Positions 1 to 27,888 are shown, numbered from the stretch's first letter. The stretch: DNA of 64,000 nt from Candidatus Woesearchaeota archaeon (GCA_023264635.1 JAHFLT010000002.1:19139-83138), one strand, 5' to 3'. Numbers and translations are program-made. The notes: a model not told the origin generated them from the sequence alone.

Positions 1-48
1 ACCGGAGAACTGCGCTTTAATTCTGCAATTATTCCTCATCAGGACATT

Positions 49-3000
49 ATGGGTGGAAATGATGTTGTTGATCCGCACAAATTCCAGAGAATTGATGGCA
101 TGAGTCTTGATAGTCCATTCAGGCATCTCTTTATTGAGGTGGCAACAGGCTTTGACACACCTCAAACGCTGAAATATTACAACGATTTAGCACTCTATCC
201 AGAAACTGCTCCGTTAGATAGTACAATTGTTCAGTTCTCAATGACAGGACGTGCATATCTCTTTGTGCATGGCAAGGGACTAGTTGATATCACTAAGAAG
301 TATCAGGAACTAACCTTCCAAAGACCTGCTAATGCCAACCAACAGATACAAAGATTACTGGAAGAAGCAAAAAAATGTGGAGGAAAAATAACAGGTGCTG
401 CAACGTGTCCTGTTGCTGTATTCATAAAATTAGAACAAGCAATGAGAACCAACAATATTAATGATAAATACTATTACTTACGCCAAGCAAGAGAGCTCCT
501 CCAAAAAGTGCAAGATGGAATTCCTGCTACAGAAGCAGCACAAGCGCTTACACCCGAAGACATAGACCAAGTTATTGCAAGCATACGAGAGACAAAGTCT
601 GCATCTCCCCTTGCACAATTGATACAAAAAATTAAGGCCACACCGATAAAGCCAGAAGTAATGGCATTACTTATTGAAATTGATGAGGCACTTTCCAGTT
701 GGAGATATGACACAGTAGCAAGGGCACTTGAGCAATTGAACACTTACGGACCTGATGCACTTCCTGCACTTCCTATAATACATAAAGTGATGCAACAAAC
801 ACCACCGTATCCTGATTTGGTAGAAAGTATTGTAAACATGCAAAGCAATGCTCTGCAGGTTTTAGGGAAAATCGGTTCTATCAGTTATGTTAGCGACTTA
901 CACAATGCACTTGAAAATGCCCACCCACGGATAAGGCTTAATGCAGCGATAGCATTAGGAATAATGGGAGAAAGAAGCAGTAAGAGAGAACAAGAAAAAA
1001 TCATCGCGGCATTAGGATTATTGATAACCGAAGAAAAATATGAGGGTATAAGATCTGCTGCTATCTTCGCATTAGGTAATATAGGTTCACCAGAAGCGAG
1101 AGCAAACTTAGAAGAATTAGTACATCTTAAAGAATACGAAAAAAACGACCGGGATATAGCCAACATCCTTATTTCATTGGGAGAGATGGGGCATGATGCA
1201 ATTGAATCATGGGAAACCATTATTCCTTTTACCAGTATAAACCAGCCCAAGTATGTTAGAGTAACTGCATTAAAAACAATCGGGAGAATTGGTTCTCCGG
1301 AAGGAATACCTGTATTAATAGAAGCACTAGGTGATAAAGATACTGAAATACATGATGCTGCTGAATTCGGGTTACACGTCGCAAGAAAAGAAGCTGTACC
1401 CGCACTTATCAAGGTAATTGACAATAAAAATAGAAATGTCCGACAAAGTGCATCTAAAATATTGAGTGAAGGTGGGATAGATACTATTGCAGCTGTGCCT
1501 GTGCTGATGAAAAAAGGATATTCTGCAGAAGCAATATCTGCAGAAGCAATACTACTTCACGCAAAAAAAGAGATAGAACAAGGCATATCACTCACTGAAG
1601 AACAGAAAGAAACAGCTGCCCAAGCAATAGTCACTGCACTCGCATACAAACTTTCTCCAACAGCACTTCCACTGGGTTTATTCATTCTAAAAGCTACAGG
1701 AGCCACAGCTACTGATGCAGCGATGATGGCATTGAGCGAAGGAAGAATTGGCCCCGAAATTGCGAAAGTCATCGTAGCCCGAACTGCCACAGATGAACAG
1801 CTACAACTTATGCTATTGAGTGAAAATGCGCCTGTTCGTACTGTTGCATTGAGTGTCTTTATACAACAAAAAGGAGCAGAAGCAATCCCTACTCTTATGG
1901 ATGCGCTTCATGACGCTTCTCCTGAAGTTCTCATTGCTTCACTGACATTCTTTTTAGTGGGAAGAATACACCTATTATCATCTGAACAAAAGAGGTTATT
2001 AGGAGAAAGAGTGACTGAATTAGTAGAACATCCCCGTCCAGCAGTAACTGCGAAAGCTATCACAATTCTCGCTGAACTAGGTAATCAAGACTATTTGCCC
2101 ATTATTGTGAAATTTATAGAGGATAATGAATATTCTTTTCGGGCCATCATAAAGCAAGTGAGCAAAGAATGGAGGAGTAGTTTGGGTATTGAGAGATACA
2201 CATTAGAACAGAGTCAAGCAGTGTCCACTGCATTATCCAGTCTTGCTGCATTCGGACATGCTGCAATTCCATCGATTATAGAACGAATAAAGGTCCCCGC
2301 GGTACAAGAAGGCATTTTCAATCGAGCATATAAGTTATTTGATGCAGAGCTTGATGCAACAATAAATAATGACCTAACCGGATTTAGAAATTGGATTGAG
2401 AATGATCCGCAGAATGCTGCGCTGCTTCTCTTTGATAATTATCCAAGACCAGAAGAGATAACGTCACCAGAACAAAGACAAGAAGTGGTTACTGCGATTA
2501 AACAAGACCTCCGGGCTGCAAGGGTAGCACAGACGAAATATAGAGGAGTTGCAGAGCGATATGTAAATGGTCGGGTGGTAGAACGGAAAATGCTTGAATC
2601 CCCTGAATTTGTCAGAGCAAAAGAGCTGAAACTCAAGCGGCTGGCACAAATGCTTAGAAACGTAGGTGAACAGGAAGCTGCCGAACTGCAGGAAGCAGAA
2701 AGATTATTGCAGGGAGAAGCGCCCATCTTTAGAGAAGCTGAAAGGCAAATGGGCACCGTGACAAGCCCAGAAATGGAACAACTTATTGCGCAAGATCCCA
2801 CCGTGACACGAGAGACTGCTTTGGTGGTATTAGACAAACTACAGAGTGAACTACAACTTCCCACTGTTCTCCCAGAAGAGGTTCTGCCTGCAATGCAAAA
2901 AGTAAAACCCATGCTAAAAGAAGAACTAGATATCGATATGGCCATTACCAGAAAACTAGCAATCGCTGCAGGAGACTATATGGGTGCTTTAGTTTCAGTA

Positions 3001-6000
3001 TTTACGTTAAATCCTGTATTTGTGACAGCTGGTCTTTTTGCTGGTACGGCCGTTGGTGGTGAAGCGTTAAAGTTGGCAATGACAACAAGCACAAGACAAA
3101 GAGTTGAAGAAATACTCTCAGCGCTCGAGGAGATATTGAACCTTCCTCCGGATAAAGTGGCAAATAGAGTAGTGCCATTTGAGCATCTCTATACAGTTGC
3201 ACGACAGATACACAATGCACGAGCAGACCTTTCAGATGAATATATAGTCACGAGATTAAAAGAACTGTATAATGCACGAATCTTTGCATGGCAGATCGAG
3301 CAATTAGAAGAATTTTGGGTATTGCCTGACATTGAACAAGCTATAGCCATTGCAAAAAGTAACTTTCCCATAGAATATGCAAAAGCATTCTGGAATAAAG
3401 GAGCAGGAATTCATGATATTGCGGAACTAAGCGAACGCTACAGAACAACAGAAGGGCAGGTTACAGTTGATTTGATGTATCACTTCCTCCCACAAATAGA
3501 AAGGTTCAGGATGGATGATTACAATACATTGGAAAAAAGAGTGATGGATGCTGAGATGGATGTTCTCGCTGAGGCTGTTGCTCTGCCACTTGAAGAAGAT
3601 ACTACCGGAAGAATAAGAGAACTGCTCAGGGGAAGAGAAGCTGAAGTTGTTCCAGAAAATGAAGTCAAACTCATCGAACAAAAGAGGTGTGAAAGCCCAT
3701 GTAAAGAGAGAAATGCATTCATGGCTGCATTGGCACAAGCAGCTGGGTTAGCACTATCAGACGCAGAAAGAGAGAAAGCACAGAGCGAAGGAAAAATTGT
3801 TGTTTCATTGCCGAATGGTGTCTTTGTCACCCAAGAAGCACACAATTTCCTCCAGAAAGTGGTTGATGTGAAATTCTTTGAATCATTATTGGAATATAGT
3901 AATCCCAAACACGCACAATATGATGAGGTAAAGAAAGTATTGCACCAGGCAGAACAAGATGGAAAAGTAAGAACAGCACTGGAAAGAGCGGTTGTCCAAA
4001 TGGCAAAAGCAGGTATTGCCTTGCATGAGAATAATGCTTTTGCTGCGAGAGATGCTATACGTAATGCTGTACGAGAAATGAATGGTGCTGGTGAAGGTAT
4101 AACACAACAACTGAACGCAGCATTGGATGCTAAAGACTATAGAACACTCATGCAATTATTAGCGACGCCAGAGAGTGCAACTCGACAGGCAGTTCTTGGC
4201 GCTATGGGAAAGAGAGGCCTCGCAGGATTAGCACCTCCTTTTGAACCTGCACTCTATCTAAAATATGCATATGCTTATGCAGCAGAGGAAGGAGTACGTT
4301 TCCTCATGGATTATGTCATGCCATTTGCGCAACAGAATGAGCTTCAACCAGGTTGGGCATTATTATATCTTGCTCGTGCATACAGGATGAATCCTGAGCA
4401 TGTCAAAGACATCTTGGGTAAGAAACCACATCTGGCTACTTTGGAGATATTTGCTGACGAAGAATTGAGAATCAGATCAGCCACTGCAGTGACAACAGGA
4501 CAGCTCAAGAAGAATCTTTTAGTAGGCGATCGAATACATGGAACGTCTCTCGGGGCTTTAGAATCCGTGCGTTCTGATGGTCTGGAGTTATCCAAGTCGT
4601 TTGAAGGAGAAGCAGTGGTAGCAGCTACTGAAGTTGATAACCCCATCAAAAACAATCTTAATCTTCTTGACCCGTTAAGTTATGCCATTGGCAGGTCCCG
4701 TGAACGAGGAGATTGGCCCATTCTGCTGCGAATCAGTAGAAATAATCCAGAACAGCCAAAAAGAGAAGGACCAGGCTATAATGAAATCTGGTACCATAAC
4801 AATATCCATCCCGAATATATTGAATATTTCAATCCATTCACCGGAGAATGGAAATCTATTACCAAGCTGACGCCCCTTGAAGGAGACAGTCTCAAAAAAC
4901 AATTCAGTGATGCATGGAAAAAGCAGCAGATGCAGGTGCAAGGACAAGATAAACTATTGGTAACAACTAATCAAATCTATATGGATACTCCACAGTATGA
5001 ACGTGCTTACGAACGTGCTACTGCTGTAAAAACACCTTCATTAGTGGGGGAGCCAACCCGCGCTGAACATGATTTTACAGAAAAAAAGGTCCTTGCTCTC
5101 GGAGAACGACTAAAATGGCCCCAAGAAATGCAGAAAAAGTACAGAAGTAAAATAACCATTCTCAACAATGAAGATGAAGCATTGTACATGTACAATGCTT
5201 ACAAGAAAATATATCCTACTCAAATCGAAGGTGTACAGTTCCAAAGGGATGACTATTTCAAACCATTTAGTGTTCCTGAAAAATATGATGTTGTTACCTT
5301 AAACTTTCCAGATTATGTTGGTATACCAAATTTCGAACAGTTAGTAACGAATATAAAAAATGCATTAAAAGAAGAAGGGAAGTTTTATCTGGTAAGTGAA
5401 GGTGAGCCTGGCGTAGTGAGCGGACATATTACTCAGGGAAATGTTGCTTTGCTTAGAGCATTAAAGGAAAAAGGTTTTATTCTTGTACTCGAGGGGAATG
5501 CAGAAAAAAATCTTAGAGGATATACAGAGGAAGCATCATCACTCCACTTTCCCCTTGATCTCGCATACGTATGGGTTTTCAGAAAATCAATAAATGTTCC
5601 CAAGCAAGCAGACTGCAAAGGTGGATCGCTTGTATGTACAGTGACATTCTCACAACCAATTGAAGACATACTTGTGACAGCAGATAGAATAACAGAAAAA
5701 ATAGAAGAAGCTACCGATGCAATTCTCCCAGCACCGATAACCTCGCTAAGCAATGATAAAAGATCTATCTCTATGACATACAAAACAGAACAACAATTTG
5801 ATTATGATGCTCTTAAAAAAGAAATCGAGAGCGGGTTGCCTTCTGGTGAACGTGTAACTCTAGCCACATCAAGTGAAGAGATACTCAGAAAAGATCCCCA
5901 CATTATTTCATTTGAAACGGGAAGATATACTCTACCTGAAATAGACTATAGCCAGTTCTCAGATCAAGCACGTGCAAAATATCTTGTAAACCGTCTGGAT

Positions 6001-9000
6001 GCATTCCTAAATGGGCCTATCATTAAAGATTCATTTGAGACACACGAAAAAAGAGTTACATGGAGAGAAACACTTCCTCAGGATGTCAGAGCATATTATG
6101 AGACCAATAGTCTTCGGTATAATCTCATAGTAAAACTTACTTTTTCCGGGTGGAGTATTATCCGATTCTATTTGGGTGATGCCTACATTCAGAATAATGA
6201 AGAAGTAAAGACAGCTGTAGAAGAGATAGAAAAATTATACCTTACTATAGATAAATATGACAAATTATCCTTAGAGGATAAAGTTCTTCATGGTAAAGAA
6301 ATAAAAAGAGCTGCGCATAATGTTCTGGGTGCATTAGCAGCCGGGAAAAAGGCGCCGAAAGGAGGAGCAGGAGAGGTCTCACCACTACAAAAAGGAGCGG
6401 AAAAAGCAAAGCCACTTGCTGCATTGACACTTGATATTGGTGGGCAGAGTTTCCCATTACCGAAGGTAAAAGTAGATGAGAACATAGATGCAGAAGGATT
6501 ACTGCGTTTAATAGCAAATACAGCAGACTGGCCACAAGCAGAAAAAAAAATAAAAGATATTCTTGCTGAAAATAATCTGGAAGAAGGTGTTGTTGTGGAT
6601 GGGGATGGTGATCTGGTTCTGTATGTGAAAGATAGTGAGGGAGTAATAAGAAAAGTTGGGGTGAAAGCATTTGAACAAGCAGTTTCTGAACAAGTAGAAC
6701 AACCAGTCTCATGTGGCCTTGGCTCAGGATTCTGCGGGGGGATGAATACGAAAGTACTTCCCTCAATAGGATCAGAGACTGTCCTCAGAGGACAGACCAT
6801 AGACATCAAAAATCCCACAATAGAACTAGCAGGTAAAATAGTGGAAATCAGACTAAGTAAATCTATAATAACACTTCATGAAAAACGAGGGAGATTTTTC
6901 CTGACCTACGAAGGAAGAGACATCCCATTGGATAAACCTGTAACAAAAATAGGAAGAGATTCTGGAAATGATATTGTTATTGAATATCCCTCTGTCTCTC
7001 GAAGGCATCTCGAGATAACATATGACAAGCAAAAAGGCATTTCCATCAGAGACCTCAATTCGCTAAATGGCTTACTTATCAGTGTCGGGAAAGAACTATC
7101 GCCCACGGAGAACGTTGCATCAAAGAATCTTGAAGTAATGAAGAAGAATACCCGAGGTGGAATGCTTGATTTGGTAAACAAAGAGAGTATGGGAGGGAAT
7201 GCTGGTTTTTATCAGGGTTACCCTGCGGTTGCTGCAAATTTTTATTTTAACCCAACAACAGGAGAGATTGTTTATTTCAGAAATATCCAGGATGTGCCTC
7301 CGGATATTCGTGCCTGGCATGCAAAAGGCACGTTTTTGGCTGCTGTAGACATACGAAGCGGGAAGTATAGTATTTTCAAATTTTGGTCAGACACAATTAT
7401 TTCTGGTAAGACTATGCAAGTCATGGAGGAATCAATACAACGCTTCAACAAAGAAGGTGGATTTGAAATACCAAAAGTTACTTCTACGACTCCAAAAGGA
7501 GAGCTCCAGATGTCTCCCATTGCAACAGTAGCTGCGGCAGCTATTGTGTTGATTAATCCCGTTGTAGGCGTGGGAATAATGGTGGGGTATGCATTGTATA
7601 GAGTAGGAACAATAGTGTTTGATACAATTGATGACTGGCTTCACCCAATACGCCCAGAACAGCAAGCACTTATAGACCAACTCAAAGATCCTAACCAGAA
7701 AGAAGAAGCCGCAAACATCCTTCATGGCATGGGAGCAAGAGCAGTTCCTTTTTTGCTCTACTCATTAAAAAAAATGGATAGTGAAACAAGTTATTCAGTA
7801 AGAAACATCATAGTAAATATGGGTGATGAAGCAATTCCCGCATTGCTCAATGCATTGGAGAATAATGATAATGATATCAGAAAGAATGCTGCTAGTATCA
7901 TCCGGAGTATAGAACCAACGGACAAGAAATTGATTCCTGCATTGATTCCTGCACTCTCAGACAATGACTTTAATGTTGGATATGACACCGCAATAACCTT
8001 AGCTAAAATAGGAGCAGATGCTGTTCCTGCCCTGCTGAAAGTGATAAAGAAAGGGGGTCAGAATAGCAAAAGAAATGCCGTATATGCACTAGGTTTTATG
8101 GATTCTGTTCCGCAAGAAGCTGTGCCTATCCTCATAAAAATCCTGCAGAACCAGGACATTTACTACAGGAGTTTTGCTGCAACAGCGCTGGGCAAAAGCA
8201 GAGATCCTCATGCAATTCACGTCTTACGGCAGGCATTGCATGATACAGAAAAAAAGGTGAGGGCGGAAGCTGCAAAAGCATTAGGGAAACTGAATGACAG
8301 AGAAGTAATACCTGAATTAACGAAACTTTTAAAAGATGAATTTATAGAAGTAAGGATTGCTGCTATTGAAGCTATGAGAATAATCGGCATCACGGAAGAT
8401 GATACTGTAACAATCAATAGCCTCATTGAAATAGTACAAACAACAGAGGACTCTGACATAAAACGTGCAGCGATACGAGTTTTAGGGGCAAGCAGTTCTG
8501 AGAGTGCTGTATCTATACTGGTAGCAATTGCAAGAGGTCAAAACCAGCCACAAACAATGAAAATCATAGCACTTGAGGCACTTGGTTCTCTAGGAGCTGT
8601 TGCAAAAACAGCTATTCCTCATCTTGTGGAGATTATAAGAACAGATCCATGGAATAATGGTCATTATGCAGCAAAGGCATTAGGAAACATGGGCAGTGAA
8701 GCGCTTCCTGTGGTGCTTGAGTTGTTAAGAGTTGGGGGAAACATACCCTATACTATTTTTGAAGACTCAGCTGTAAAAATACTGGTGAATGAGGGAATTG
8801 CTGCAATACTACACCAATTGAAAGGCCCAAGATCATATAACAGAAAAGTTGCTATCATGGCTCTGGGAAAGCTTAGCCCGGAAATAGCAAATACTCCTGA
8901 AATAAAAGCAGAATTAGTTAATGCACTTACAGATCATCTATCCTCTGTCCGTGAGAAAGCTGCTGATGCACTTGAACAAATGGGAGAAGCTGCTTTGCCA

Positions 9001-12000
9001 GAATTAATACAACTGCTACGGGGGGAGGATGACAGATTACTTACTCCCGCAATAAAACTCTTGACACGACTTGGAGCAAAAGCAGTGCCTTCGTTGACCC
9101 TCCTTCTTAGCGATGAAAATGCAATTGCCAGAAGAATGGCTGCAAAAATCTTAATAGGATTAGAGGATGACGCAGCTCCAGCAGTAGATGCACTGATAAA
9201 AGCACTGAATGATGAAGATGAAAATGTTCAGGCATTTGCTGCAAGTGCATTGAGTAAGATAAAAAAAGAGAGAAAAAGAATTATCACTGCCATGCTTGCA
9301 CAACTCACAGTAAGTACCTCACCAAGACAAGAAGTTACTCTCATTGAGGCATTAAGCGATATGAAAGCTGAAGAAGCAACTCCCTATCTGATTTCAGCAT
9401 TAGTGAGTGAAACCACAAGACCTGCTGCAACTGAGGCGTTGGGCATGATGGGCAAAAGTGCTGTTTTGCCGCTTATAGACCTGATAGAAAAGACAAATGA
9501 TCTGGACATAAAAACCAGTGCAATTATCGCGCTAGCATCAATTGGTCTTCTTGCAGAAGAAGCCATTCCGACATTAGTCAAGACACTGAAAGACCCACAA
9601 CTGAATATTGTCTCCCTAAATGCATTAATTGCTCTGAAAGATGCTGCACTGCCATCTCTTAAAAAAATTATCGAAGACAGAACAGAAGAACCAACACTAC
9701 GCATCTATGCAATAGAGGGGATGATAAAAATAGGGAAAAATTATAAGGATGTGGGAGAACTACTGTGGGGTATCCTTCTTGACCCTACGGAAAATAGCAA
9801 TGCGAGACATGCTGTTGGTGCTAGGATAACTGCAATAAGTGATGGAGAATCTATTAGCAATAAAATGCAGATAGATCGCAAACTGGCTGAATATATTTCA
9901 CGCCAAACAGATGCGCTAATGGACCTCATCCTGCACCCTGTGAAGAAAGCTGCTCTCAATGCTATTGCAACACAACTTGGAAAAGAGCGTACTGCGCATC
10001 CCAGCGAGAGAAAGATTGGTGAAGATGAGAAACTGACATTATTTGAGTATCTTTTCTCATTGAGCGACGACCAGGTGATGAATGCAAAAGAACTATTTGA
10101 CCAATACTTCAAAAATGACCCAACCCAATATACTATTGACCTTAATTCTCTTACTGAATTGATAAGACATATTGGATTAGATGGTTTAGAGCGATTGATA
10201 GCAATACTAAATGACCCATACCACAGTGTTGAGGATATTCTTGTGCTTGCTCAAGAAAGTCTTGGAGCATTGCCTGAAGCCGAGAGGGAATACACAAAAA
10301 GAAAATTGAGATGGATCATTGAAAACCATCGCATGCTTGAAGAAGAATTACAGGAGATTAAGGAACTCACTGTGGGGATGAGCTCAGAGGATGCTATGGC
10401 ATTATTAGAAGCTATAGATAAAGCAAATACGCCAGATGCGCTTCTTTCATTTACTAGACCAATAGGGCAGATATTCAAAGTCAAGCTGAGCAGCATGCCA
10501 CCAAATGAGGTAACGCCTTTCTTGATAAAAATAATAAATGCGCTTGACAGCATGAAGATTGCAGGAAAAACCAGATTGAATGATGCACAGAAACAGGAGG
10601 TGCTGGCTAAAGTCAGAGAAACAATGCAATCATTGCCAGAACAGGAGCAAAGAAGAGTATTATTCGGCATTCTAACCAAACTAAGCAGGAATAAAGAAGA
10701 TATTCTCACATTCCTGCAGCTATTTGAAGGACAGACGCCATTACAACGATTGGTAAGCGAATTTAGAGATATCCTTAATGATGCCGACATCCAGAATATT
10801 ATTACAACACCATTGCTTACTACTGAGCAAAAGATAGCACTCCTGACGCAGCTAAGCAAAGACCCGATAGACCTAATTCTTAAGAAACTACCACCTGAAG
10901 CAGCAACACTGCAAGAAGATATCAGGAAAATCAGTCAGAAAAGTGCTCCCACAATGGGAACAAAGATTCCCCATGTCTTTTTTGAAACCGTTATGAAGGT
11001 GAGTCAATTTGACTCTTCTGTCATTACGTCATTTCAGCAAGTGATAACTGCTGAGCCTGTTAGAAGGACTGGATTGCTGAAAAACCTGTTGTATGAAAAA
11101 ATGGTTGAGCTGTCCCGAACTGGATATGACAATACGCAACAGATTTTCTCGGGGATACTGAACGCAGTGAAAATCCAGTTTCATGATTTTCGTGATATCT
11201 CCAAAAATGGCAGGGAAGTTGCTGAGACGCTCAAACAACGAATTGAACAGATGATGACAATAAAAGAGGTAAAAGCAAATGCCTTGGGCAATGTGTTTGT
11301 TGATTTTGAGGGGAACCCCTTGCACGAAGAAAACAGAAAACTCAGAGAATTAGCAGAAGTAATTGAAAAAGAGCTGCTTGAAAAGAATATATTCAACAAA
11401 GAAGCATACGAACAGATGCAGAAAATACTCAGCACAATAAAGATTAACGACCTGTTAGCTGCTTTTGGGAATAATGTAAAAATAGAGAATAGGGAAAACG
11501 TCATGAGGAAACTCACAGAATACAGAAATACTCCTGCAGGCAGGCAAAAAGACTATAATGGGTATGACTTGTACAAGTTACTTCAGAAATATCTGAAACA
11601 GAAACATGAAAACATATTCAATACAGTGCTCTACGACGCGCTGATACATGAGATAGAAGGCACATTCTCTCCATGGAGATACCAAAGCCCTGATTACATT
11701 GCAACGCTTGATGCCTTTATTGAAAATGAAATCAAAAAAAATGGGGTTGAGGACGAATTTAAAATCATTGATGGGAAAAATCCCGTAGAAAAATTGGCAA
11801 ACAGTGAGTACAGGGATATCAAACAAAATATGGGGAGAATACGCACATGGGAACAGCCAGCCAGCAAGGCCATAACAATAGGAAAGGAGGAATACACGCT
11901 CTCATTTGCAGATGATTTATTTACACTTATCAACGTAGGAAACAGCCCGTTCTTTTTCAGCTGCCAGAACTGCATAAGCGGTAGCTACAACGAGGGACTG

Positions 12001-12495
12001 CTTGGATACATTGCAAACGGCGCCAATAAGGCAATTGTAGTGAAAAACAAAGATGGTACCATTATCGGCAGACGCATAGTGAGATTACGACTTGTTGACA
12101 ACAGACCAATACTCTTCCTTGAAAAAATGTATGGCAATAAAGGAGAAAAAGAAATGCTTGATTTTGCCAGAGAAATAGCGGCGACAATGGGGCTTCCTCT
12201 TGCAACGCTTGGCCAAGAAGAGCACAAAATGGTGTTATTTGACGGGAGAAGCCCCTACGATTATAGTGATTCATATGGGAGGGTATTAGAAGGGGGTGAT
12301 GTTGGACTTTATAACCATGAAAAACATAACCGCCAAGCTAATCAGGAAGTGACAAAGCCAATAACAATTAGTGTCGGTATGACCATAGAAGAAATCCCTA
12401 TATCTGCGCTTGCAGAGCACATTGCCGCCATACCATTAAATGAAATTATCCCTGCTGCTCAAGCTGCTGCCCAAGAACAGGCAGTAGCTGGATAG
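49..12495 (+). CDS. Giant multidomain protein (>=4148 aa) with two PBS-lyase/HEAT repeat arrays, an FHA domain and a hydrophobic membrane segment. The reading frame is open back to nt 1, so the N-terminus may be truncated by the window
   Basis: Single uninterrupted ORF. HEAT-like repeats (e.g. 'AIFALGNIGSPEA', 'ALKTIGRIGSPEGIPVLIEALGDKD', 'AVYALGFMDSVPQEAVPILIKIL', 'AAKALGNMGSEALP') at aa ~280-480 and ~2560-3230. FHA signature 'KIGRDSGNDIVIEYPSVSRRHLEITYDKQKGISIRDLNSLNGLLI' at aa ~2300. Hydrophobic stretch 'IATVAAAAIVLINPVVGVGIMVGYALYRVG' at aa ~2490. Confidence 0.8.
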   Translation: MGGNDVVDPHKFQRIDGMSLDSPFRHLFIEVATGFDTPQTLKYYNDLALYPETAPLDSTIVQFSMTGRAYLFVHGKGLVDITKKYQELTFQRPANANQQIQRLLEEAKKCGGKITGAATCPVAVFIKLEQAMRTNNINDKYYYLRQARELLQKVQDGIPATEAAQALTPEDIDQVIASIRETKSASPLAQLIQKIKATPIKPEVMALLIEIDEALSSWRYDTVARALEQLNTYGPDALPALPIIHKVMQQTPPYPDLVESIVNMQSNALQVLGKIGSISYVSDLHNALENAHPRIRLNAAIALGIMGERSSKREQEKIIAALGLLITEEKYEGIRSAAIFALGNIGSPEARANLEELVHLKEYEKNDRDIANILISLGEMGHDAIESWETIIPFTSINQPKYVRVTALKTIGRIGSPEGIPVLIEALGDKDTEIHDAAEFGLHVARKEAVPALIKVIDNKNRNVRQSASKILSEGGIDTIAAVPVLMKKGYSAEAISAEAILLHAKKEIEQGISLTEEQKETAAQAIVTALAYKLSPTALPLGLFILKATGATATDAAMMALSEGRIGPEIAKVIVARTATDEQLQLMLLSENAPVRTVALSVFIQQKGAEAIPTLMDALHDASPEVLIASLTFFLVGRIHLLSSEQKRLLGERVTELVEHPRPAVTAKAITILAELGNQDYLPIIVKFIEDNEYSFRAIIKQVSKEWRSSLGIERYTLEQSQAVSTALSSLAAFGHAAIPSIIERIKVPAVQEGIFNRAYKLFDAELDATINNDLTGFRNWIENDPQNAALLLFDNYPRPEEITSPEQRQEVVTAIKQDLRAARVAQTKYRGVAERYVNGRVVERKMLESPEFVRAKELKLKRLAQMLRNVGEQEAAELQEAERLLQGEAPIFREAERQMGTVTSPEMEQLIAQDPTVTRETALVVLDKLQSELQLPTVLPEEVLPAMQKVKPMLKEELDIDMAITRKLAIAAGDYMGALVSVFTLNPVFVTAGLFAGTAVGGEALKLAMTTSTRQRVEEILSALEEILNLPPDKVANRVVPFEHLYTVARQIHNARADLSDEYIVTRLKELYNARIFAWQIEQLEEFWVLPDIEQAIAIAKSNFPIEYAKAFWNKGAGIHDIAELSERYRTTEGQVTVDLMYHFLPQIERFRMDDYNTLEKRVMDAEMDVLAEAVALPLEEDTTGRIRELLRGREAEVVPENEVKLIEQKRCESPCKERNAFMAALAQAAGLALSDAEREKAQSEGKIVVSLPNGVFVTQEAHNFLQKVVDVKFFESLLEYSNPKHAQYDEVKKVLHQAEQDGKVRTALERAVVQMAKAGIALHENNAFAARDAIRNAVREMNGAGEGITQQLNAALDAKDYRTLMQLLATPESATRQAVLGAMGKRGLAGLAPPFEPALYLKYAYAYAAEEGVRFLMDYVMPFAQQNELQPGWALLYLARAYRMNPEHVKDILGKKPHLATLEIFADEELRIRSATAVTTGQLKKNLLVGDRIHGTSLGALESVRSDGLELSKSFEGEAVVAATEVDNPIKNNLNLLDPLSYAIGRSRERGDWPILLRISRNNPEQPKREGPGYNEIWYHNNIHPEYIEYFNPFTGEWKSITKLTPLEGDSLKKQFSDAWKKQQMQVQGQDKLLVTTNQIYMDTPQYERAYERATAVKTPSLVGEPTRAEHDFTEKKVLALGERLKWPQEMQKKYRSKITILNNEDEALYMYNAYKKIYPTQIEGVQFQRDDYFKPFSVPEKYDVVTLNFPDYVGIPNFEQLVTNIKNALKEEGKFYLVSEGEPGVVSGHITQGNVALLRALKEKGFILVLEGNAEKNLRGYTEEASSLHFPLDLAYVWVFRKSINVPKQADCKGGSLVCTVTFSQPIEDILVTADRITEKIEEATDAILPAPITSLSNDKRSISMTYKTEQQFDYDALKKEIESGLPSGERVTLATSSEEILRKDPHIISFETGRYTLPEIDYSQFSDQARAKYLVNRLDAFLNGPIIKDSFETHEKRVTWRETLPQDVRAYYETNSLRYNLIVKLTFSGWSIIRFYLGDAYIQNNEEVKTAVEEIEKLYLTIDKYDKLSLEDKVLHGKEIKRAAHNVLGALAAGKKAPKGGAGEVSPLQKGAEKAKPLAALTLDIGGQSFPLPKVKVDENIDAEGLLRLIANTADWPQAEKKIKDILAENNLEEGVVVDGDGDLVLYVKDSEGVIRKVGVKAFEQAVSEQVEQPVSCGLGSGFCGGMNTKVLPSIGSETVLRGQTIDIKNPTIELAGKIVEIRLSKSIITLHEKRGRFFLTYEGRDIPLDKPVTKIGRDSGNDIVIEYPSVSRRHLEITYDKQKGISIRDLNSLNGLLISVGKELSPTENVASKNLEVMKKNTRGGMLDLVNKESMGGNAGFYQGYPAVAANFYFNPTTGEIVYFRNIQDVPPDIRAWHAKGTFLAAVDIRSGKYSIFKFWSDTIISGKTMQVMEESIQRFNKEGGFEIPKVTSTTPKGELQMSPIATVAAAAIVLINPVVGVGIMVGYALYRVGTIVFDTIDDWLHPIRPEQQALIDQLKDPNQKEEAANILHGMGARAVPFLLYSLKKMDSETSYSVRNIIVNMGDEAIPALLNALENNDNDIRKNAASIIRSIEPTDKKLIPALIPALSDNDFNVGYDTAITLAKIGADAVPALLKVIKKGGQNSKRNAVYALGFMDSVPQEAVPILIKILQNQDIYYRSFAATALGKSRDPHAIHVLRQALHDTEKKVRAEAAKALGKLNDREVIPELTKLLKDEFIEVRIAAIEAMRIIGITEDDTVTINSLIEIVQTTEDSDIKRAAIRVLGASSSESAVSILVAIARGQNQPQTMKIIALEALGSLGAVAKTAIPHLVEIIRTDPWNNGHYAAKALGNMGSEALPVVLELLRVGGNIPYTIFEDSAVKILVNEGIAAILHQLKGPRSYNRKVAIMALGKLSPEIANTPEIKAELVNALTDHLSSVREKAADALEQMGEAALPELIQLLRGEDDRLLTPAIKLLTRLGAKAVPSLTLLLSDENAIARRMAAKILIGLEDDAAPAVDALIKALNDEDENVQAFAASALSKIKKERKRIITAMLAQLTVSTSPRQEVTLIEALSDMKAEEATPYLISALVSETTRPAATEALGMMGKSAVLPLIDLIEKTNDLDIKTSAIIALASIGLLAEEAIPTLVKTLKDPQLNIVSLNALIALKDAALPSLKKIIEDRTEEPTLRIYAIEGMIKIGKNYKDVGELLWGILLDPTENSNARHAVGARITAISDGESISNKMQIDRKLAEYISRQTDALMDLILHPVKKAALNAIATQLGKERTAHPSERKIGEDEKLTLFEYLFSLSDDQVMNAKELFDQYFKNDPTQYTIDLNSLTELIRHIGLDGLERLIAILNDPYHSVEDILVLAQESLGALPEAEREYTKRKLRWIIENHRMLEEELQEIKELTVGMSSEDAMALLEAIDKANTPDALLSFTRPIGQIFKVKLSSMPPNEVTPFLIKIINALDSMKIAGKTRLNDAQKQEVLAKVRETMQSLPEQEQRRVLFGILTKLSRNKEDILTFLQLFEGQTPLQRLVSEFRDILNDADIQNIITTPLLTTEQKIALLTQLSKDPIDLILKKLPPEAATLQEDIRKISQKSAPTMGTKIPHVFFETVMKVSQFDSSVITSFQQVITAEPVRRTGLLKNLLYEKMVELSRTGYDNTQQIFSGILNAVKIQFHDFRDISKNGREVAETLKQRIEQMMTIKEVKANALGNVFVDFEGNPLHEENRKLRELAEVIEKELLEKNIFNKEAYEQMQKILSTIKINDLLAAFGNNVKIENRENVMRKLTEYRNTPAGRQKDYNGYDLYKLLQKYLKQKHENIFNTVLYDALIHEIEGTFSPWRYQSPDYIATLDAFIENEIKKNGVEDEFKIIDGKNPVEKLANSEYRDIKQNMGRIRTWEQPASKAITIGKEEYTLSFADDLFTLINVGNSPFFFSCQNCISGSYNEGLLGYIANGANKAIVVKNKDGTIIGRRIVRLRLVDNRPILFLEKMYGNKGEKEMLDFAREIAATMGLPLATLGQEEHKMVLFDGRSPYDYSDSYGRVLEGGDVGLYNHEKHNRQANQEVTKPITISVGMTIEEIPISALAEHIAAIPLNEIIPAAQAAAQEQAVAG

Positions 12496-12559
12496 ATTTA
12501 AAAGAGTGAAAGATATAGATTACTAAGAGATATAAAAAACGTAGAAAAAAAAGAAAAAA

Positions 12560-13129
12560 ATGGTGCAACAACTAGAAGATTATATAACAAAACTCTTGAA
12601 AAAGGGGTACAGCAAGAATTTCATTAAAGAGCAGCTGCTTAAAGCAGGTTACGATGAGAATGAAGTTTTCCCCCTCATACATGCCCTTGAAGAGCAATTC
12701 TATCCAAAGGATACTGCGAGAAGATGGCACTTCAGTGCTACAGTAATGGGTGTTATCATTATCATATCAATCACCCTCTTTTTTCTATCCAAAGAGAAAC
12801 CAGTGCAGCTCTGCACAGACACATCCTGCTTAACCGCAGCAGCTAATGCATGCCAGCCTGCGCAGTATTATGAGGATATAGATGGCACAAAGATGCTTTA
12901 TGATGTAAGAGGATGTGTTTTAACAAAGAAGTTCACCATTTTTGGCTCAAAAGAACCAAAAGAGATGCAAGACGTTCTTGGAAAAAAGGAAGTTGAATGC
13001 CGTTACCAAGAAGGACGATTTGACAGGGAATGGCTTGATGTGTTTGGTGGACTAGAGAAATGCACTGGTTCTTTAAAAGAGGCTGTTTATGGATTTCGCT
13101 TAGCCCAAGAAGCTCTTCGTACTGTGTAG
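12560..13129 (+). CDS. Hypothetical small membrane protein (one TM helix, Cys-rich C-terminal domain)
   Basis: ORF fills the intergenic gap. TM 'FSATVMGVIIIISITLFFL'; 6 Cys in the predicted extracytoplasmic part. Confidence 0.5.
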   Translation: MVQQLEDYITKLLKKGYSKNFIKEQLLKAGYDENEVFPLIHALEEQFYPKDTARRWHFSATVMGVIIIISITLFFLSKEKPVQLCTDTSCLTAAANACQPAQYYEDIDGTKMLYDVRGCVLTKKFTIFGSKEPKEMQDVLGKKEVECRYQEGRFDREWLDVFGGLEKCTGSLKEAVYGFRLAQEALRTV

Positions 13130-13234
13130 AAATTTTAAGAATTTTGAGCTTTCTACTTCTATATACGACACTGCCATAATCTTTATATAGTAATTACTGC
13201 TGCAAAAAACAGTAAAAATATCGTGAGGGGGTAG

Positions 13235-15076
13235 ATGATGGTGAAAATCAATAACTTTACTGAGCTTGATAGAGTATTACAAAAATCTTTTTCTGCCATT
13301 CGCAAAGACATCGATAAGATAAAGAAAAATACAGAATCACGTGTTGATGACATCAAAAGGGGCTCTGTCCATGAGAAAACCATGGGGGATACGAAAGTCA
13401 AGTTCCTTACATCCGAGATAAGGAAATTGAAGGATGCGCACGCAGACCTTCTTTCGCTGCAGAAGGCACAGATCGATAAGCTTGATAATGTCAACAAAAA
13501 ACATGCAGACGAACTGAAGCATCACCTTTCTCAAGAGCTTTCCAAGACAGAAGTGGAAACAGACCGCCTGAAGAATGACATTGTGAAATTGGTGTCCATG
13601 CTGAAAGACAAGATGGTCACACGGAAACTCTTTGATGAGCGCAATAAAGTCTATGATAATAATCTATGTGAACTCCTTGATGTAAGCAAAGAAATCAAGG
13701 ACTTCAAAGTAAATGCGAGGCTGCAGGTAGACAAGCAGTTGAGCAATACAAAAGAGGATATAGATGTCCTGAAGGAAGAAATTGCATCAATAAACGAGGA
13801 ATTGGGAGAACTAAGGACAACTGCACAGAGCATATCCGGATTGCGAATGGAACTATCAGAATATGTGGGAAAAGATGAATTTTCACAGAAACTCGCGCTT
13901 TTCGACAAAATGAGCACAAGCGTTGAGAAAATTGACCAGACACTTTCAGAATTGACAGAACTAAAGGAACAAGTACAGGGTGCTGGCAAGATAAGAGAGG
14001 ACATTGATTCTGTCAAGAGCCAGCTTGAAAGCGAGCTTACCAGTGTTCGGGACGCAATGCTTGCAAGAAGTGACCTCGATGAAGTACGCGCAAAGGTTGA
14101 TACGCTACAGTCAATGGTATCTAAAGTAGATGAAATAGAAGAAGCAGTAAAGAAAGCAGGCAAAACAGAACAGGATATAGAAGACCTTAAGGATGAGTTA
14201 TTGGCCCTTCCTGAGCTCAGTAAAGAGTTTGAGAAGTTAAAAAAGGATAATGATAAGCTTTCCCTTAAGGTTGATACACAACAGGTAAAATTAGAGTTAT
14301 TGGATGCTACAACACCAAAAAGAAAGGAAGAAAAAGGAAAAAAAATGGAAGAGAAGAACGAACCAGAGCTTCTCATTGAGCAAAAACCAGAAGACTTGCA
14401 AGACACAGAACAGCCTAATGAGCAAGGATTCTTCTCAAAGACGCTTAAAGGCATTGCTGATTTCTTCATAGAGGACGAAGAGGTACAGACGGCGCAGAAC
14501 TCCCCTATAATGGAGCAAACAGAAGAAGTAAAGAGTGAAGTCAAGGAAGAAAAGAAAGATAATGAGCTGTTTATCAAGAATATTGAGAAGATTTTTGATG
14601 AGGAAGAACCATACACCTTCGAGGGAGGACTTCAGCCAGAGATAACAACACAAAAAGCAGGCTTCTTTACAAGGATAAGGAGCGGAGTTGTGAATTTCCT
14701 GTTTGAAGAAGTTGACGATACTGAAGTCGTACCAGAAACGCAACCAGTTGCCCAAGAGGGATTGACTGGTACCTCGGTTGTTGCTGAAACACAACTGGAC
14801 GAGCCTGTTAGTAAAGCAGTGCCAGCACTTGTCAAATCAAAACCGAAGAAAGCAAAGAGGATACAGAAAAAGAGAGAAATCAAAGAAACAAAGGAAGGAA
14901 AGGAAGAACCTCAATACATGCTAAACAAGAAGCCTCATGTCTTTGAAGAGGAAGATGGTGCTGGAGAAACAGAAGAGAATGGCAAAAAGCGCAAATACAA
15001 GAAAATAAAGGGAGATGACCCATTAGCTGAATTTGCAGAAGAGGAAGTGCTTTATCCAGAAGATTATTTTTATTGA
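13235..15076 (+). CDS. Hypothetical acidic coiled-coil protein with basic K/E-rich C-terminal tail
   Basis: 613-aa ORF. Heptad-like, highly charged sequence (E/K/L/D-rich) over ~350 aa. G-rich SD-like 'GAGGGGG' before the ATG. Confidence 0.6.
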   Translation: MMVKINNFTELDRVLQKSFSAIRKDIDKIKKNTESRVDDIKRGSVHEKTMGDTKVKFLTSEIRKLKDAHADLLSLQKAQIDKLDNVNKKHADELKHHLSQELSKTEVETDRLKNDIVKLVSMLKDKMVTRKLFDERNKVYDNNLCELLDVSKEIKDFKVNARLQVDKQLSNTKEDIDVLKEEIASINEELGELRTTAQSISGLRMELSEYVGKDEFSQKLALFDKMSTSVEKIDQTLSELTELKEQVQGAGKIREDIDSVKSQLESELTSVRDAMLARSDLDEVRAKVDTLQSMVSKVDEIEEAVKKAGKTEQDIEDLKDELLALPELSKEFEKLKKDNDKLSLKVDTQQVKLELLDATTPKRKEEKGKKMEEKNEPELLIEQKPEDLQDTEQPNEQGFFSKTLKGIADFFIEDEEVQTAQNSPIMEQTEEVKSEVKEEKKDNELFIKNIEKIFDEEEPYTFEGGLQPEITTQKAGFFTRIRSGVVNFLFEEVDDTEVVPETQPVAQEGLTGTSVVAETQLDEPVSKAVPALVKSKPKKAKRIQKKREIKETKEGKEEPQYMLNKKPHVFEEEDGAGETEENGKKRKYKKIKGDDPLAEFAEEEVLYPEDYFY

Positions 15077-15272
15077 GTAAAAATCAACTGAAAAATGAGA
15101 GATTTAATACCCGCGCTAATTCTGCTTGAGTAATGATTCTACTCTTCTTTTCCATTGATTGGTACAGAATTTCACGAGAGACACGTTCTGCTTGCTTCAT
15201 CTTTCGCTCTGTGCTGCTCTAGATTGATATATCTCTCTCTAAAAATGGAATGGTAACGATGCAAAATAAGAC

Positions 15273-16565
15273 TTATCTTTCTCTCTGTTCCATCCGTCTA
15301 TAAATGAGATATCCCATGACTAGGAGTACGATAAAGATGATAGCACCAACCCAGAACTTTGTTTCTTTCTCAACAGTAGGGGGAGTGGAGGGAGCAGGGG
15401 GTGTTTCCTTCTTCTCTTCTGGTTTTACTTCTTCTTTCTTACCAGTATCTTCTTTCTTTTCATCTGGTTTCGTTTCTTTTGTCCCTTCTTTCTGTTCTTC
15501 AGTGGCAATAATTTCCTCTTTAGTTTCTTTACCAATAATTGCATAATAACTTAGCCCTTGGAAAGTTGACTCATATCCTACGGAAACACCGGAATCACTT
15601 ATTTTGCTTGTTGGCATCTCTTTCCACTCTTTATCAACTAATCTCAGCAGGACAACATTCTCTGACTTAAGCCGCTTATCACTCAACCAGTCCTTCGCCA
15701 CAGTAAAGGTAATAGTAGTGACAGCTACATCTTCATCCTTTATTTTATCATGCTCAACTTTAATATACTCATAAACAGCATTCTTTAATTCTGGCGCATC
15801 TGGTATTTTAGGATTAAATCTCAATATCTTAATTTCTACTTTCTCCAACGTTTTCTTGAGCTTGATAAGTATCTTGGTGAATGCGATAAACTCACTTATA
15901 ATAGGTATCTGAATCACTTTATCAGCCGGAATAATCGCAAAATTCTTAGTGACAGTATATCCTGAAGTTGTCTTAGAAACTCCACCACCGCCAAAACCAT
16001 TACTATCTGTTGTACCAGGTGATTCAACTTGAGTTCTAAAAGTAAAGCCACCAACATATTTACAGAAACCAAACCTATCACAACTAGTCACATTGAAAAA
16101 ATAAGGGGTATTCTGCGCAAGATCAAATAAAGTAACAGAATGTGATGCTACAAAGCTTGAACTAGAAGAACTAAGTGTCAAAGCATTTGCTGCAGTTCCA
16201 TAAGTAACCACACTTGTTGCAACTTCATCAGTGTCCCATGTAACAGTTGCCTGACGCACGAGGACATTACTTGTCGCTACTCGGGTAATAACTGGATTGA
16301 ATACATCTACCGAAAGAATACCATACCGCCCAGAGTTGGAAACATTGTTATATGTCCCTTGGATTAAATCATCTCCCTCAACCCTATTCCACGTTTTTCT
16401 TGAATCTGCATCGGTCATTGTGCCGATATTACCAGTAAGATTTCCTCCAAGATGCCCTGTAGCACTTACTAAAATAAGACTCGTATTTTCTCCAATCCCT
16501 GTAAAAGCTGAGACTGATGTAATCAACACCAAAAATACAACCAATAACACATACACCTTTTGCAT
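15273..16565 (-). CDS. Secreted surface protein with N-terminal signal peptide, PGF-pre-PGF-like domain, T/P/E/K-rich linker and C-terminal TM anchor
   Basis: N-term 'MQKVYVLLVVFLVLITSVSA'. The domain 'ILRFNPKIPDAPELKNAVYEYIKVEHDKIKDEDVAVTTITFTVAKDWL' resembles archaeal PGF-pre-PGF surface-protein domains. C-term 'FWVGAIIFIVLLVMGYLIYRR'. Confidence 0.6.
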   Translation of the reverse strand: MQKVYVLLVVFLVLITSVSAFTGIGENTSLILVSATGHLGGNLTGNIGTMTDADSRKTWNRVEGDDLIQGTYNNVSNSGRYGILSVDVFNPVITRVATSNVLVRQATVTWDTDEVATSVVTYGTAANALTLSSSSSSFVASHSVTLFDLAQNTPYFFNVTSCDRFGFCKYVGGFTFRTQVESPGTTDSNGFGGGGVSKTTSGYTVTKNFAIIPADKVIQIPIISEFIAFTKILIKLKKTLEKVEIKILRFNPKIPDAPELKNAVYEYIKVEHDKIKDEDVAVTTITFTVAKDWLSDKRLKSENVVLLRLVDKEWKEMPTSKISDSGVSVGYESTFQGLSYYAIIGKETKEEIIATEEQKEGTKETKPDEKKEDTGKKEEVKPEEKKETPPAPSTPPTVEKETKFWVGAIIFIVLLVMGYLIYRRMEQRER

Positions 16566-16592
16566 GAATCAACCCTTTTTTATTTTATAAGT

Positions 16593-16934
16593 TTATGTTA
16601 CAACTTTAAATTTGTCCATAATTTTATTGTTTTGATAATCATAAATTACAACTGTATCACCAAATGCAATCATATAATCACCATTTTTTGCATTTTCATA
16701 AAACTGTGGTTGTTGCGCTCGAACCTTATTGATATCATCTATCTTTGCAATCAATGCATCATTAGGTATCTTTACAAACACATTTAGTTTTGCCTTAAAA
16801 TCTGATGGCAAACCGATTGCGGCACCAGTAACTGGCACTGGACTTGACTGCACACCAAACTGTTGTCCCTTTTCATACCAGACACCAGCTGCAAATCCGA
16901 CTAATAACACTACAATCAACCATTTTGCATCCAT
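16593..16934 (-). CDS. Hypothetical small membrane-anchored protein
   Basis: 113-aa ORF; N-terminal TM 'WLIVVLLVGFAAGVWY'. Confidence 0.45.
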   Translation of the reverse strand: MDAKWLIVVLLVGFAAGVWYEKGQQFGVQSSPVPVTGAAIGLPSDFKAKLNVFVKIPNDALIAKIDDINKVRAQQPQFYENAKNGDYMIAFGDTVVIYDYQNNKIMDKFKVVT

Positions 16935-17004
16935 TTCTCATCACCGTTTCGCGCAAACATCACCTCCTTTTTAAATTTTTAGATTGAAAAAATAAAAAAA
17001 ATAC

Positions 17005-27512: not shown

Positions 27513-27888
27513 GCAGTGCCTGAGAGTAACATGACCATTAAAAAGATTGCGGAAAAACAGTTCGTATAATAATCGTTTCTGGTGACTGCTACTGGCAGTG
27601 ATTAGTAATGCGTTCTGCAAGAGTTTTGATTGTTGAGGGATAGAATTCCATAATTAATGAATATTCCTTCCTTTGCTTTTTCCTCGATAGCTGAAGCAAA
27701 GCCATAGTTGATAACGAAAACTCGCCTACTCGGAGCTCTCCACGCACAAAGAAATGTGCGGCATTTCTTGTGCAAGAAATTCCTTTGAAACCTCTTTGCA
27801 CTAAAGTCAGAGGTATTAAACCCGGCAATTTTCAATAAGCTAATTTTATTTTCTCGTCTGGTTTTTCCAGCCTAAAATAATGCTCCAC

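Follow-up and report, generated by a model that had tools for sequence, protein, structure and literature searches.

The 64,000-nucleotide stretch of Candidatus Woesearchaeota archaeon DNA analysed here (GCA_023264635.1, JAHFLT010000002.1:19139-83138; hereafter the window) opens inside a single giant protein-coding gene, whose reading frame is already running at the first nucleotide and occupies the plus strand up to position 12,495. Frame 1 is free of stop codons across nucleotides 1-12492 and closes with a TAG at 12493-12495, giving 4,164 codons with a first ATG at nucleotide 49. The other five frames over the same stretch hold 89-345 stops, and the minus-strand open reading frames (ORFs) beneath the gene are short shadows. 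From base composition, the natural logarithm of the probability that 4,164 codons pass without a stop is about -289. An earlier note on this DNA had described a giant uninterrupted 12.4-kb ORF, and the gene is indeed real and archaeal. Its window part carries the following features, with residues numbered from the first codon of the window:

1-12495, plus strand: C-terminal 4,164 codons and stop of one giant gene (7,969-8,771 residues in full), open to the window edge
718-2118, plus strand: HEAT array 1, about nine PBS-type repeats (residues 240-706, with a gap at about 505-610), delineated with a self-trained repeat hidden Markov model
2980-3054, plus strand: hydrophobic segment H1, MGALVSVFTLNPVFVTAGLFAGTAV (residues 994-1018, Kyte-Doolittle peak 1.81)
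4285-4956, plus strand: 'HGTS' domain (residues 1429-1652), whose sole detectable relative is a secreted protein of 1,877 residues, P0004
5053-5691, plus strand: degenerate methyltransferase-like module 2 (residues 1685-1897), with sub-threshold profile matches and an upstream paralogue
5869-6342, plus strand: 160-residue domain of an undescribed family (residues 1957-2114)
6910-7101, plus strand: FHA domain (residues 2304-2367), matching PF00498, with a GR / SxxH / NG signature
7513-7620, plus strand: hydrophobic segment H2, SPIATVAAAAIVLINPVVGVGIMVGYALYRVGTIVF (residues 2505-2540, 36 in all, Kyte-Doolittle peak 2.41)
7687-9672, plus strand: HEAT array 2, about 21 contiguous PBS-type repeats (residues 2563-3224), from the self-trained repeat model
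9673-11820, plus strand: C-terminal region without family match (residues 3225-3940)
11863-12210, plus strand: C-terminal alpha/beta domain with a CxxC pair (residues about 3955-4070), a GNAT-like candidate

The window carries just the C-terminal 47-52% of this gene. An exhaustive HMMER search recovered a 7,969-residue NCBI protein (P0001), encoded on a 95,942-bp contig, whose C-terminal 4,164 residues match the window ORF exactly, and on the 109,571-bp ENA contig ERZ27297570 the gene upstream of the same 189-residue neighbour is called with a product of 8,771 residues. The 3,805 residues upstream of the window were read from P0001; the ENA call extends a further 802 residues towards the N-terminus. 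The earlier note was thus right that the ORF is open at its 5' edge, whereas its size figure of at least 4,148 residues has to give way to the full product. Across positions 7713-17371 the window matches a Logan contig from run SRR14366766 at 100% identity, and the three assemblies of the gene agree. No direct DNA repeats of at least 30 nucleotides were found within the giant ORF, so the HEAT arrays pose no assembly hazard. At about 26 kb, the gene would take up roughly 2-3% of the genome if that genome is close to the 1 Mb typical of DPANN archaea.

GC content at third codon positions (GC3) is 0.32 in the giant gene versus 0.41 in 15 housekeeping genes of the window, and its relative synonymous codon usage correlates with theirs at r=0.75. 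The coding strand shows a strong purine (A) excess, with an AT skew of 0.16-0.23. The lower GC3 and the purine excess could reflect low expression or a foreign origin.

The composition of the encoded protein is marked by the loss of one short pattern. With 354 asparagines and 10.9% serine plus threonine, P0001 would be expected to hold 38.6 N-x-[ST] sites, the acceptor sites for N-glycans (sequons); it holds three, all of them N-P-T. A passage in PMC8342417 describes proline at x as strictly barred by archaeal and other oligosaccharyltransferases, and the number of glycosylatable sequons in the 7,969 residues is zero. Across 500 shuffles of P0001 the mean was 37.0 N-x-[ST] sites and the minimum 19, and the window part has none against a shuffle mean of 19.1 and a minimum of 9. 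All other X-x-[ST] and N-x-X classes in P0001 lie near expectation, and the control patterns [ST]-x-N, N-[ST] and N-x-x-[ST] occur 31, 38 and 34 times against the same 38.6. Each region of the chain is equally empty, the calculated expectations being about 3.6 before H1, 7.0 between H1 and H2, 8.9 after H2 and 18.7 in the upstream half. The window's remaining 51 genes together carry 56 sequons versus an expectation of 55.1; if it followed their rate, the giant protein would hold 32, and the probability of finding zero is about 1e-14. The two clear surface proteins of the window have 39 sequons versus 20 expected and 4 versus 3.0, and the excess in the former, a 901-residue protein, suggests that N-glycosylation operates in this organism.

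The cysteines follow an equally constrained pattern. Only 14 occur in 7,969 residues (0.18%, versus 1.4% in the other genes, or about 8-fold rarer), and all 14 form seven pairs with spacings of 3, 7, 10, 4, 7, 7 and 3, the pairs themselves lying hundreds of residues apart; this arrangement arose in 0 of 200,000 random placements. Taken as composition, these counts are direct evidence of strong and specific selection against N-glycan acceptor sites along the whole chain and against unpaired or distant cysteines. The signature is striking and statistically overwhelming and, as far as the literature could be searched, undescribed: no description of sequon-free, paired-cysteine giant proteins in archaea was found in the searchable literature, which is absence of evidence only. 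Archaeal N-glycosylation by AglB takes place on the outer face of the membrane, and only a protein exposed there needs such selection, of which the cytoplasmic proteins of this genome show none; from this we infer that the whole polypeptide leaves the cytoplasm.

Recognisable modules are few relative to the length of the chain. HEAT_2 (PF13646) matches with E=2.9e-101 and 332 bits versus a cut-off of 27.7, and HEAT_PBS (PF03130) with E=1.7e-44 and 145.6 bits versus 20.9; with about 30 repeats in tandem units of about 30 residues, the protein belongs to the HEAT / PBS-lyase HEAT-like class. Both of the arrays noticed earlier are genuine, the first being longer than proposed (nucleotides 718-2118 rather than 900-1500). 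A phycobiliprotein lyase or NblB identity was considered and rejected, as the CpcE, CpcF and NblB equivalogs reach 83-103 bits versus NCBIfam cut-offs of 220-330 and the similarity is at the level of the repeats only. The FHA domain scores 45.9-51.1 bits against the PF00498 cut-off of 20.7, in agreement with its earlier placement at about 6900-7110, and the residues predicted to bind phosphothreonine are intact (IGRDS; SRRH, 2333-2336; NSLNG, 2353-2357). The earlier note had envisaged that profile searches might find no FHA or HEAT domain; both score well above their cut-offs.

Methyltransferase-like module 2 is less distinct. Its best Pfam match, Methyltransf_31, reaches E=0.006 and 16.7 bits versus a cut-off of 27, MTS and Methyltransf_25 give E of about 0.09, and PADLOC returns mad2 at E=1.5e-5. 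A paralogue lies upstream of the window at residues 3306-3516 of P0001 (E=1.5e-25). Both copies carry VLALGER-x-x-W at the position of the GxGxG motif, and both contain D-[VA]-V-T-L-N-F-P-D-Y, similar on inspection to motif IV (N-P-P-Y) of amino-methyltransferases. No profile for class I S-adenosylmethionine (SAM)-dependent methyltransferases scores above its gathering threshold and no glycine-rich motif I is present; an hhalign comparison of the module with the window's own UPF0020 methyltransferase was not significant (probability 0.2%). A single-sequence AlphaFold2 model of residues 1480-1880 has a predicted local distance difference test (pLDDT) score of 31.5, too poor to use, and a fold search on it returned noise. 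The methyltransferase-like stretch proposed earlier therefore survives as a sub-threshold similarity that does lack GxGxG, and what had been read as motifs II-III fits motif IV better on inspection.

For the remaining window part there is no Pfam, NCBIfam or PHROGs match, and PADLOC adds to mad2 only one borderline HEAT-type match (E=0.0049). Upstream of the window, Pfam gives only a weak DEAD-like ATPase (23.3 bits versus a cut-off of 26, with AAGIGKTS and DEAQ motifs by eye) and a TPR stretch; helical, apparently coiled-coil regions and methyltransferase-like module 1 are also found there. A SecA-like reading of this ATPase, considered on account of DEAQ... and GFTGTPG seen by eye, was dropped, with neither a SecA_DEAD match in Pfam nor a PDB match.

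Two hydrophobic segments punctuate the window part, of which the earlier note had found the one at about 7500-7600 (H2) and missed H1. H1 reads MGALVSVFTL-NP-VFVTAGLFAGTAV, with a central L-N-P-V, and H2 reads SPIATVAAAAIVLI-NP-VVGVGIMVGYALYRVGTIVF, with a central I-N-P-V. The arm before the N-P is just 10-13 residues long (about 13 in H2), the charges flanking the segments are uninformative, and H1 is straddled by the paralogous methyltransferase-like modules. We propose that both segments suit N-P-kinked hairpins, with their two flanks on one side of the membrane, better than single spans.

Relatives of the protein are scarce. HMMER with residues 1020-2200 against 1.84 billion cluster representatives returned 66 proteins, namely the protein itself, P0004 and about 60 small proteins; it is on this count that the earlier description of a 'hallmark' gene type goes unsupported, the search having found domain-level relatives and no other giant homologue. 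GTDB representatives scanned with residues 1-290 held no relatives, JGI metagenomes scanned with residues 1020-2290 and with one member of the small family gave no match, and IMG/VR had no relatives of the giant protein. Word-indexed searches with residues 1020-2290, residues 3281-4164 and a three-sequence alignment also gave no match, and did not recover the query itself either. A phage or plasmid polyvalent protein was considered and rejected: tblastn with three regions against phages and/or plasmids, PHROGs and IMG/VR were all null, and the neighbours are housekeeping genes. By these searches the giant gene is a lineage-specific orphan mosaic outside any conserved giant-gene family.

P0004, the one large relative, is encoded on a contig of 39.8% GC (L013:243-5960, from Logan SRR22387934) and has a canonical Sec signal peptide, MQKKWMIVLVIMLFCITSSIPSAFA followed by V, when the upstream in-frame ATG is used. 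It comprises a 16-cysteine N-terminal domain, coiled-coil-like stretches, a Gly/Ala-rich region, the HGTS domain and, at its C-terminus, the 160-residue domain. Its 1,877 residues hold 0 sequons versus 7.4 expected, and beyond the cysteine-rich N-terminal domain its cysteines fall into three close pairs, with one left unpaired. P0004 may be a smaller relative in the same functional class. Homology of the Gly/Ala-rich regions of the two proteins was not accepted, the likeness (24% identity; E=0.004 in a pairwise comparison uncorrected for composition) being one of composition alone.

We give about even credence to the proposal that the whole chain is exported and kept free of glycans where symbiont and host meet, possibly serving as a multi-effector that is delivered. 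The entire polypeptide, on both sides of H1 and H2, would be exported and would have to remain without N-glycans and long-range disulfides, with H1 and H2 dipping into the membrane as short N-P-kinked hairpins whose flanks stay on the same side. Its most likely role would be at the symbiont-host contact, where the HEAT arrays could act as binding scaffolds. More speculatively, some or all of the chain would be threaded into the host, in the manner of MARTX or large clostridial toxins; it is on this view that the cytoplasm-type modules (the ATPase, the FHA domain, the methyltransferase-like modules and a domain fused elsewhere to a response-regulator receiver) make most sense. The ban on glycans together with short disulfide loops leaves a footprint like that of autotransporter passengers, which cross a further membrane and, according to a passage in PMC3546941 citing Leyton et al. 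2011, tolerate only disulfides between closely spaced cysteines. Autotransporters share this compositional mark of a translocation constraint; they use another secretion system, belong to another domain of life and fold differently, and nothing bacterial corresponds to the sequon purge of the giant protein.

Several observations weigh against this proposal. The 7,969-residue version begins without a visible signal peptide, modules of the FHA, ATPase and methyltransferase-like kinds are classically found inside cells, and there is no sign of a delivery machine. Lacking GxGxG, the methyltransferase-like modules may be inactive. The hydrophobicity of H2, with its peak of 2.41, would suffice for a true membrane span. 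The window yielded no identifiable oligosaccharyltransferase gene, and we infer AglB in this genome only from the sequon-rich 901-residue surface protein. The sole comparison for conservation of the sequon purge is one distant protein, P0004, no orthologues having been found, and the three assemblies of the giant gene may all derive from one sample.

Delivery has a serious rival in a static surface tether kept free of glycans, although we hold this rival to be rather unlikely. The protein would be an exported adhesive fibre or intercellular tether that is never delivered, and the ban on glycans would serve to keep HEAT packing or partner binding unobstructed. It accounts for the export signatures exactly as delivery does, about 30 HEAT repeats would suit a binding surface, and surface proteins are encoded in the neighbourhood; those same clear surface proteins, however, carry sequons at or above expectation, which makes a blanket ban unusual, and the ATPase, FHA and SAM-type modules would have no obvious substrate outside the cell.

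That the protein never leaves the cell, serving instead as an entirely cytoplasmic giant scaffold on the inner face of the membrane, with two monotopic hairpins as anchors, phospho-signalling through the FHA domain and partner binding through the HEAT and TPR repeats, seems to us unlikely. Every recognisable module is of cytoplasmic type (DEAD-like ATPase, TPR, FHA, methyltransferase-like and HEAT), the start of P0001 shows no signal peptide, and charge and serine plus threonine content resemble those of the window's cytoplasmic proteins. Left unexplained would be the loss of N-x-S/T with retention of N-P-T, when cytoplasmic proteins of the window sit at expectation, as well as the roughly 8-fold cysteine depletion with exclusively close pairing; the sole large homologue, moreover, is a secreted protein.

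The earlier note had divided the protein at H2 into about 2,480 residues on one side of a membrane and about 1,650 on the other, and a stable integral membrane protein of this kind, with the FHA domain and enzyme-like modules inside and HEAT array 2 and the C-terminus outside (or the reverse), now looks unlikely. The length and strong hydrophobicity of H2 would fit it. So would the position of the FHA domain near a membrane segment, an architecture that recalls YscD of the type III secretion system and FhaB/FipA (Rv0019c), which are small FHA proteins forming parts of defined machines; the Yop-YscD_cpl and FhaB_Rv0019c profiles match the giant protein weakly, below their cut-offs, and no such machine lies nearby. 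HEAT repeats of Omnitrophota giant proteins are also predicted to be extracellular in a section of bioRxiv 10.1101/2023.11.21.568195. Against the division stand the second hydrophobic segment, the paralogous modules straddling H1 and the arm of about 13 residues before the N-P in H2. Sequons are, furthermore, equally absent on both sides of H1 and H2, which argues against the proposed split into inside and outside portions, since permanently cytoplasmic parts would carry sequons at the neutral rate of the 51 other genes.

An assembly artefact or decaying pseudogene, for which the possible single-sample origin of the records and the GC3 of 0.32 versus 0.41 might be cited, is extremely improbable given 4,164 (to 8,771) stop-free codons in three agreeing assemblies without long DNA repeats, synonymous codon usage that correlates with that of housekeeping genes, and strong domain matches and compositional selection that require an expressed and selected protein.

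Our preferred reading, export of the whole chain to the symbiont-host interface, has partial parallels in known systems. MARTX and large clostridial toxins are single huge secreted polypeptides that combine several cytoplasm-acting effectors with hydrophobic or Gly-rich delivery regions that insert into membranes. The likeness to the giant protein, which has hydrophobic segments and cytoplasm-type modules, is an analogy only: no RTX repeats, cysteine-protease autoprocessing domain, glucosyltransferase or type I secretion signal were detected in it.

The nearest archaeal precedent is the SPEARE proteins of Nanohaloarchaeota (Hamm et al. 2019, PMC6642349), which reach 8,553 residues, are mostly extracytoplasmic and have been detected by proteomics. 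Like the giant protein, they are giant, lineage-restricted mosaics of DPANN symbionts; they include a helicase/restriction-type ATPase part, and a role in host attachment and pore formation has been proposed for them (PMC6642349). The defining SPEARE domains, however, are serine protease, laminin-G adhesion and type III restriction enzyme, and no match to any of them was obtained with the window part or with the 3,805 upstream residues; the giant protein has HEAT arrays, an FHA domain and methyltransferase-like modules instead, and no sequence similarity was found. In size, a product of 8,771 residues would fall within the range of the archaeal proteins cited as the largest in 2019, halomucin at about 9,000 residues and the SPEARE protein of 8,553 (PMC6642349); Asgard proteins of more than 10,000 residues have been reported since.

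A second parallel is provided by the Archaeovorins of Omnitrophota (West-Roberts et al., bioRxiv 10.1101/2023.11.21.568195). Parts of that preprint describe HEAT_2 as their most frequent domain, predicted to be extracellular, and place methyltransferase-type and other 'cytoplasmic' domains in apparently extracellular regions with membrane segments between them. They resemble the giant protein as HEAT-dominated giant mosaics, theirs coming, by the same account, from an ultra-small predatory or parasitic lineage. They are bacterial, often exceed 30,000 residues and are rich in glycosyltransferases, as described there, whereas the giant protein is archaeal and no glycosyltransferase domains were found in it. 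HMMER, queried with residues 1020-2200 only, detected no Archaeovorin or other giant homologue, and neither section 8 of the preprint nor its keyword matches mention sequon or cysteine purging. The giant gene is, on this comparison, an orphan variant of the known giant mosaic proteins of episymbiotic microbes.

Giant genes are the usual suspects in the manipulation of hosts by DPANN archaea, on little evidence of how they act. The absence of sequons, with three N-P-T sites as a built-in control, combined with close cysteine pairs constitutes a cheap and strong localisation signal, and it turns the vague idea of a 'scaffold' into testable predictions: a protein that is exported, unglycosylated and possibly translocated a second time. 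If the signature proves general, metagenomes could be screened with it for secreted or injected archaeal proteins that lack homologues or recognisable domains. A bolder extension, which we regard as doubtful, is that DPANN archaea make a whole class of exported mega-effectors purged of sequons and long-range disulfides, since the chain, once outside the symbiont and in contact with the extracellular glycosylation machinery, would have to be threaded across the host membrane for its ATPase, FHA, methyltransferase-like and signalling-type modules to act beyond it; if true, the sequon-free, paired-cysteine signature would be a sequence-only route to host-injected proteins of uncultured archaea.

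Three further regions of the giant protein yielded partial clues. The HGTS domain, 29-33% identical to its counterpart in P0004 depending on the alignment, has the conserved motifs GD-x-[IV]-HGTSL, PILLR and E-x-WY. Its HGT... and ...NEIWY elements may be akin to motifs of PARP and Tpt1, a resemblance for which no computational support was found; a PDB profile search of the domain gave no match, and phmmer gave a single match, to a PARP13 domain, at E=0.034 and out of register. An ADP-ribosyltransferase-like reading is thus only a lead. The C-terminal alpha/beta domain is possibly GNAT-like, a low-confidence lead from a single-sequence AlphaFold2 model of residues 3889-4164 with a poor pLDDT of 41.3.

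About 60 small proteins of about 165 residues (within P0002-P0066) align to the 160-residue domain at residues 1957-2114, with E down to 2e-15. Elsewhere the domain occurs as free-standing proteins, at the C-terminus of P0004 and once N-terminal to a response-regulator receiver (P0059). Members carry the motifs DPHI, IDYS, PYI-x-DDF-x-x-H-x-x-RR-x-WR and YD...EKI, and the family has neither a Pfam nor a PDB match. The free-standing proteins look cytoplasmic, and their sequons are not depleted (43 versus 56 expected). Five loci of the family (L014-L018) lie on short contigs of 34-46% GC, and one member adjoins a Fic-domain gene.

Two further genes follow the giant gene on the same strand:

12560-13129, plus strand: 189-residue single-pass membrane protein, 64 nucleotides downstream of the giant gene
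13235-15076, plus strand: 613-residue highly charged protein (40% K+R+D+E, net -32), coiled-coil-like

The A-rich spacers that precede these two genes, of 64 and 105 nucleotides, contain TATA-like boxes and lack a T-run terminator. The 189-residue protein has six cysteines C-terminal to its membrane segment, and we read this cysteine-bearing part as lying outside the cell; its gene accompanies the giant one on each of the two contigs that could be retrieved, and the protein may be a partner of the giant protein. The 613-residue protein, which shows weak SMC/LmuB-like matches and neither a signal peptide by eye nor any membrane segment above threshold, is another candidate partner.

Surface proteins do lie nearby, as the earlier note had said in placing the giant gene at the head of a surface or secreted cluster; the two clear ones, however, are on the opposite strand. 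The 901-residue protein (17005-19710, minus strand) has an N-terminal signal or anchor and long imperfect repeats (such as GGLTVVGGxIVQTGGLTVLAGGATITG), with no Pfam match; with just 6.5% charged residues and its surplus of N-x-S/T sites, it is probably of the surface or S-layer type and heavily N-glycosylated. A 430-residue protein (15273-16565, minus strand) has a signal peptide, a Lys/Glu/Pro-rich stalk, a C-terminal membrane anchor and a weak fibronectin-III-like match (Pur_ac_phosph_N). Adjoining its gene is that of a 113-residue protein with an N-terminal anchor (16593-16934, minus strand), both being convergent with the giant gene. Further along, at 21709-22641 on the minus strand, is a SurA-like parvulin peptidyl-prolyl isomerase of the bacterial periplasmic-chaperone type, whose 6 sequons versus 1.5 expected suggest a secreted, glycosylated chaperone.

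The rest of the window points to the host lineage. It encodes the archaeal-type ribosomal proteins L3, L4, L2, S19, L22, L14, S4e and S5, together with Hef, a PriL-like protein, FtsZ, aIF5B, Trm1 and Lhr, and also a bacterial-type MetK and the SurA-like isomerase; tRNA and Rfam scans of the window found nothing. Among the GTDB representative genomes reachable by pattern scan, the consistently closest was a Nanoarchaeota metagenome-assembled genome, JBBSWF010000016.1, with identities of 46% for uL3, 57% for uL4, 57% for uL2 and 46% for the PriL-like protein. In that genome the PriL-like gene lies within 3 kb of the uL3 gene, in the gene order seen in the window. These matches support a DPANN (GTDB Nanoarchaeota-related) origin, far from any represented species, and bear out the DPANN-type placement proposed earlier.

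Two smaller observations concern other parts of the window. A 409-residue protein with 15 cysteines and no Pfam match is encoded at 47969-49198 on the minus strand. The genes for MetK (25267-26448), MTHFR (26556-27620) and a small RelA/SpoT-domain, alarmone synthetase-like protein (27889-28659) are grouped together on the minus strand and, in an archaeal genome, were probably acquired horizontally.

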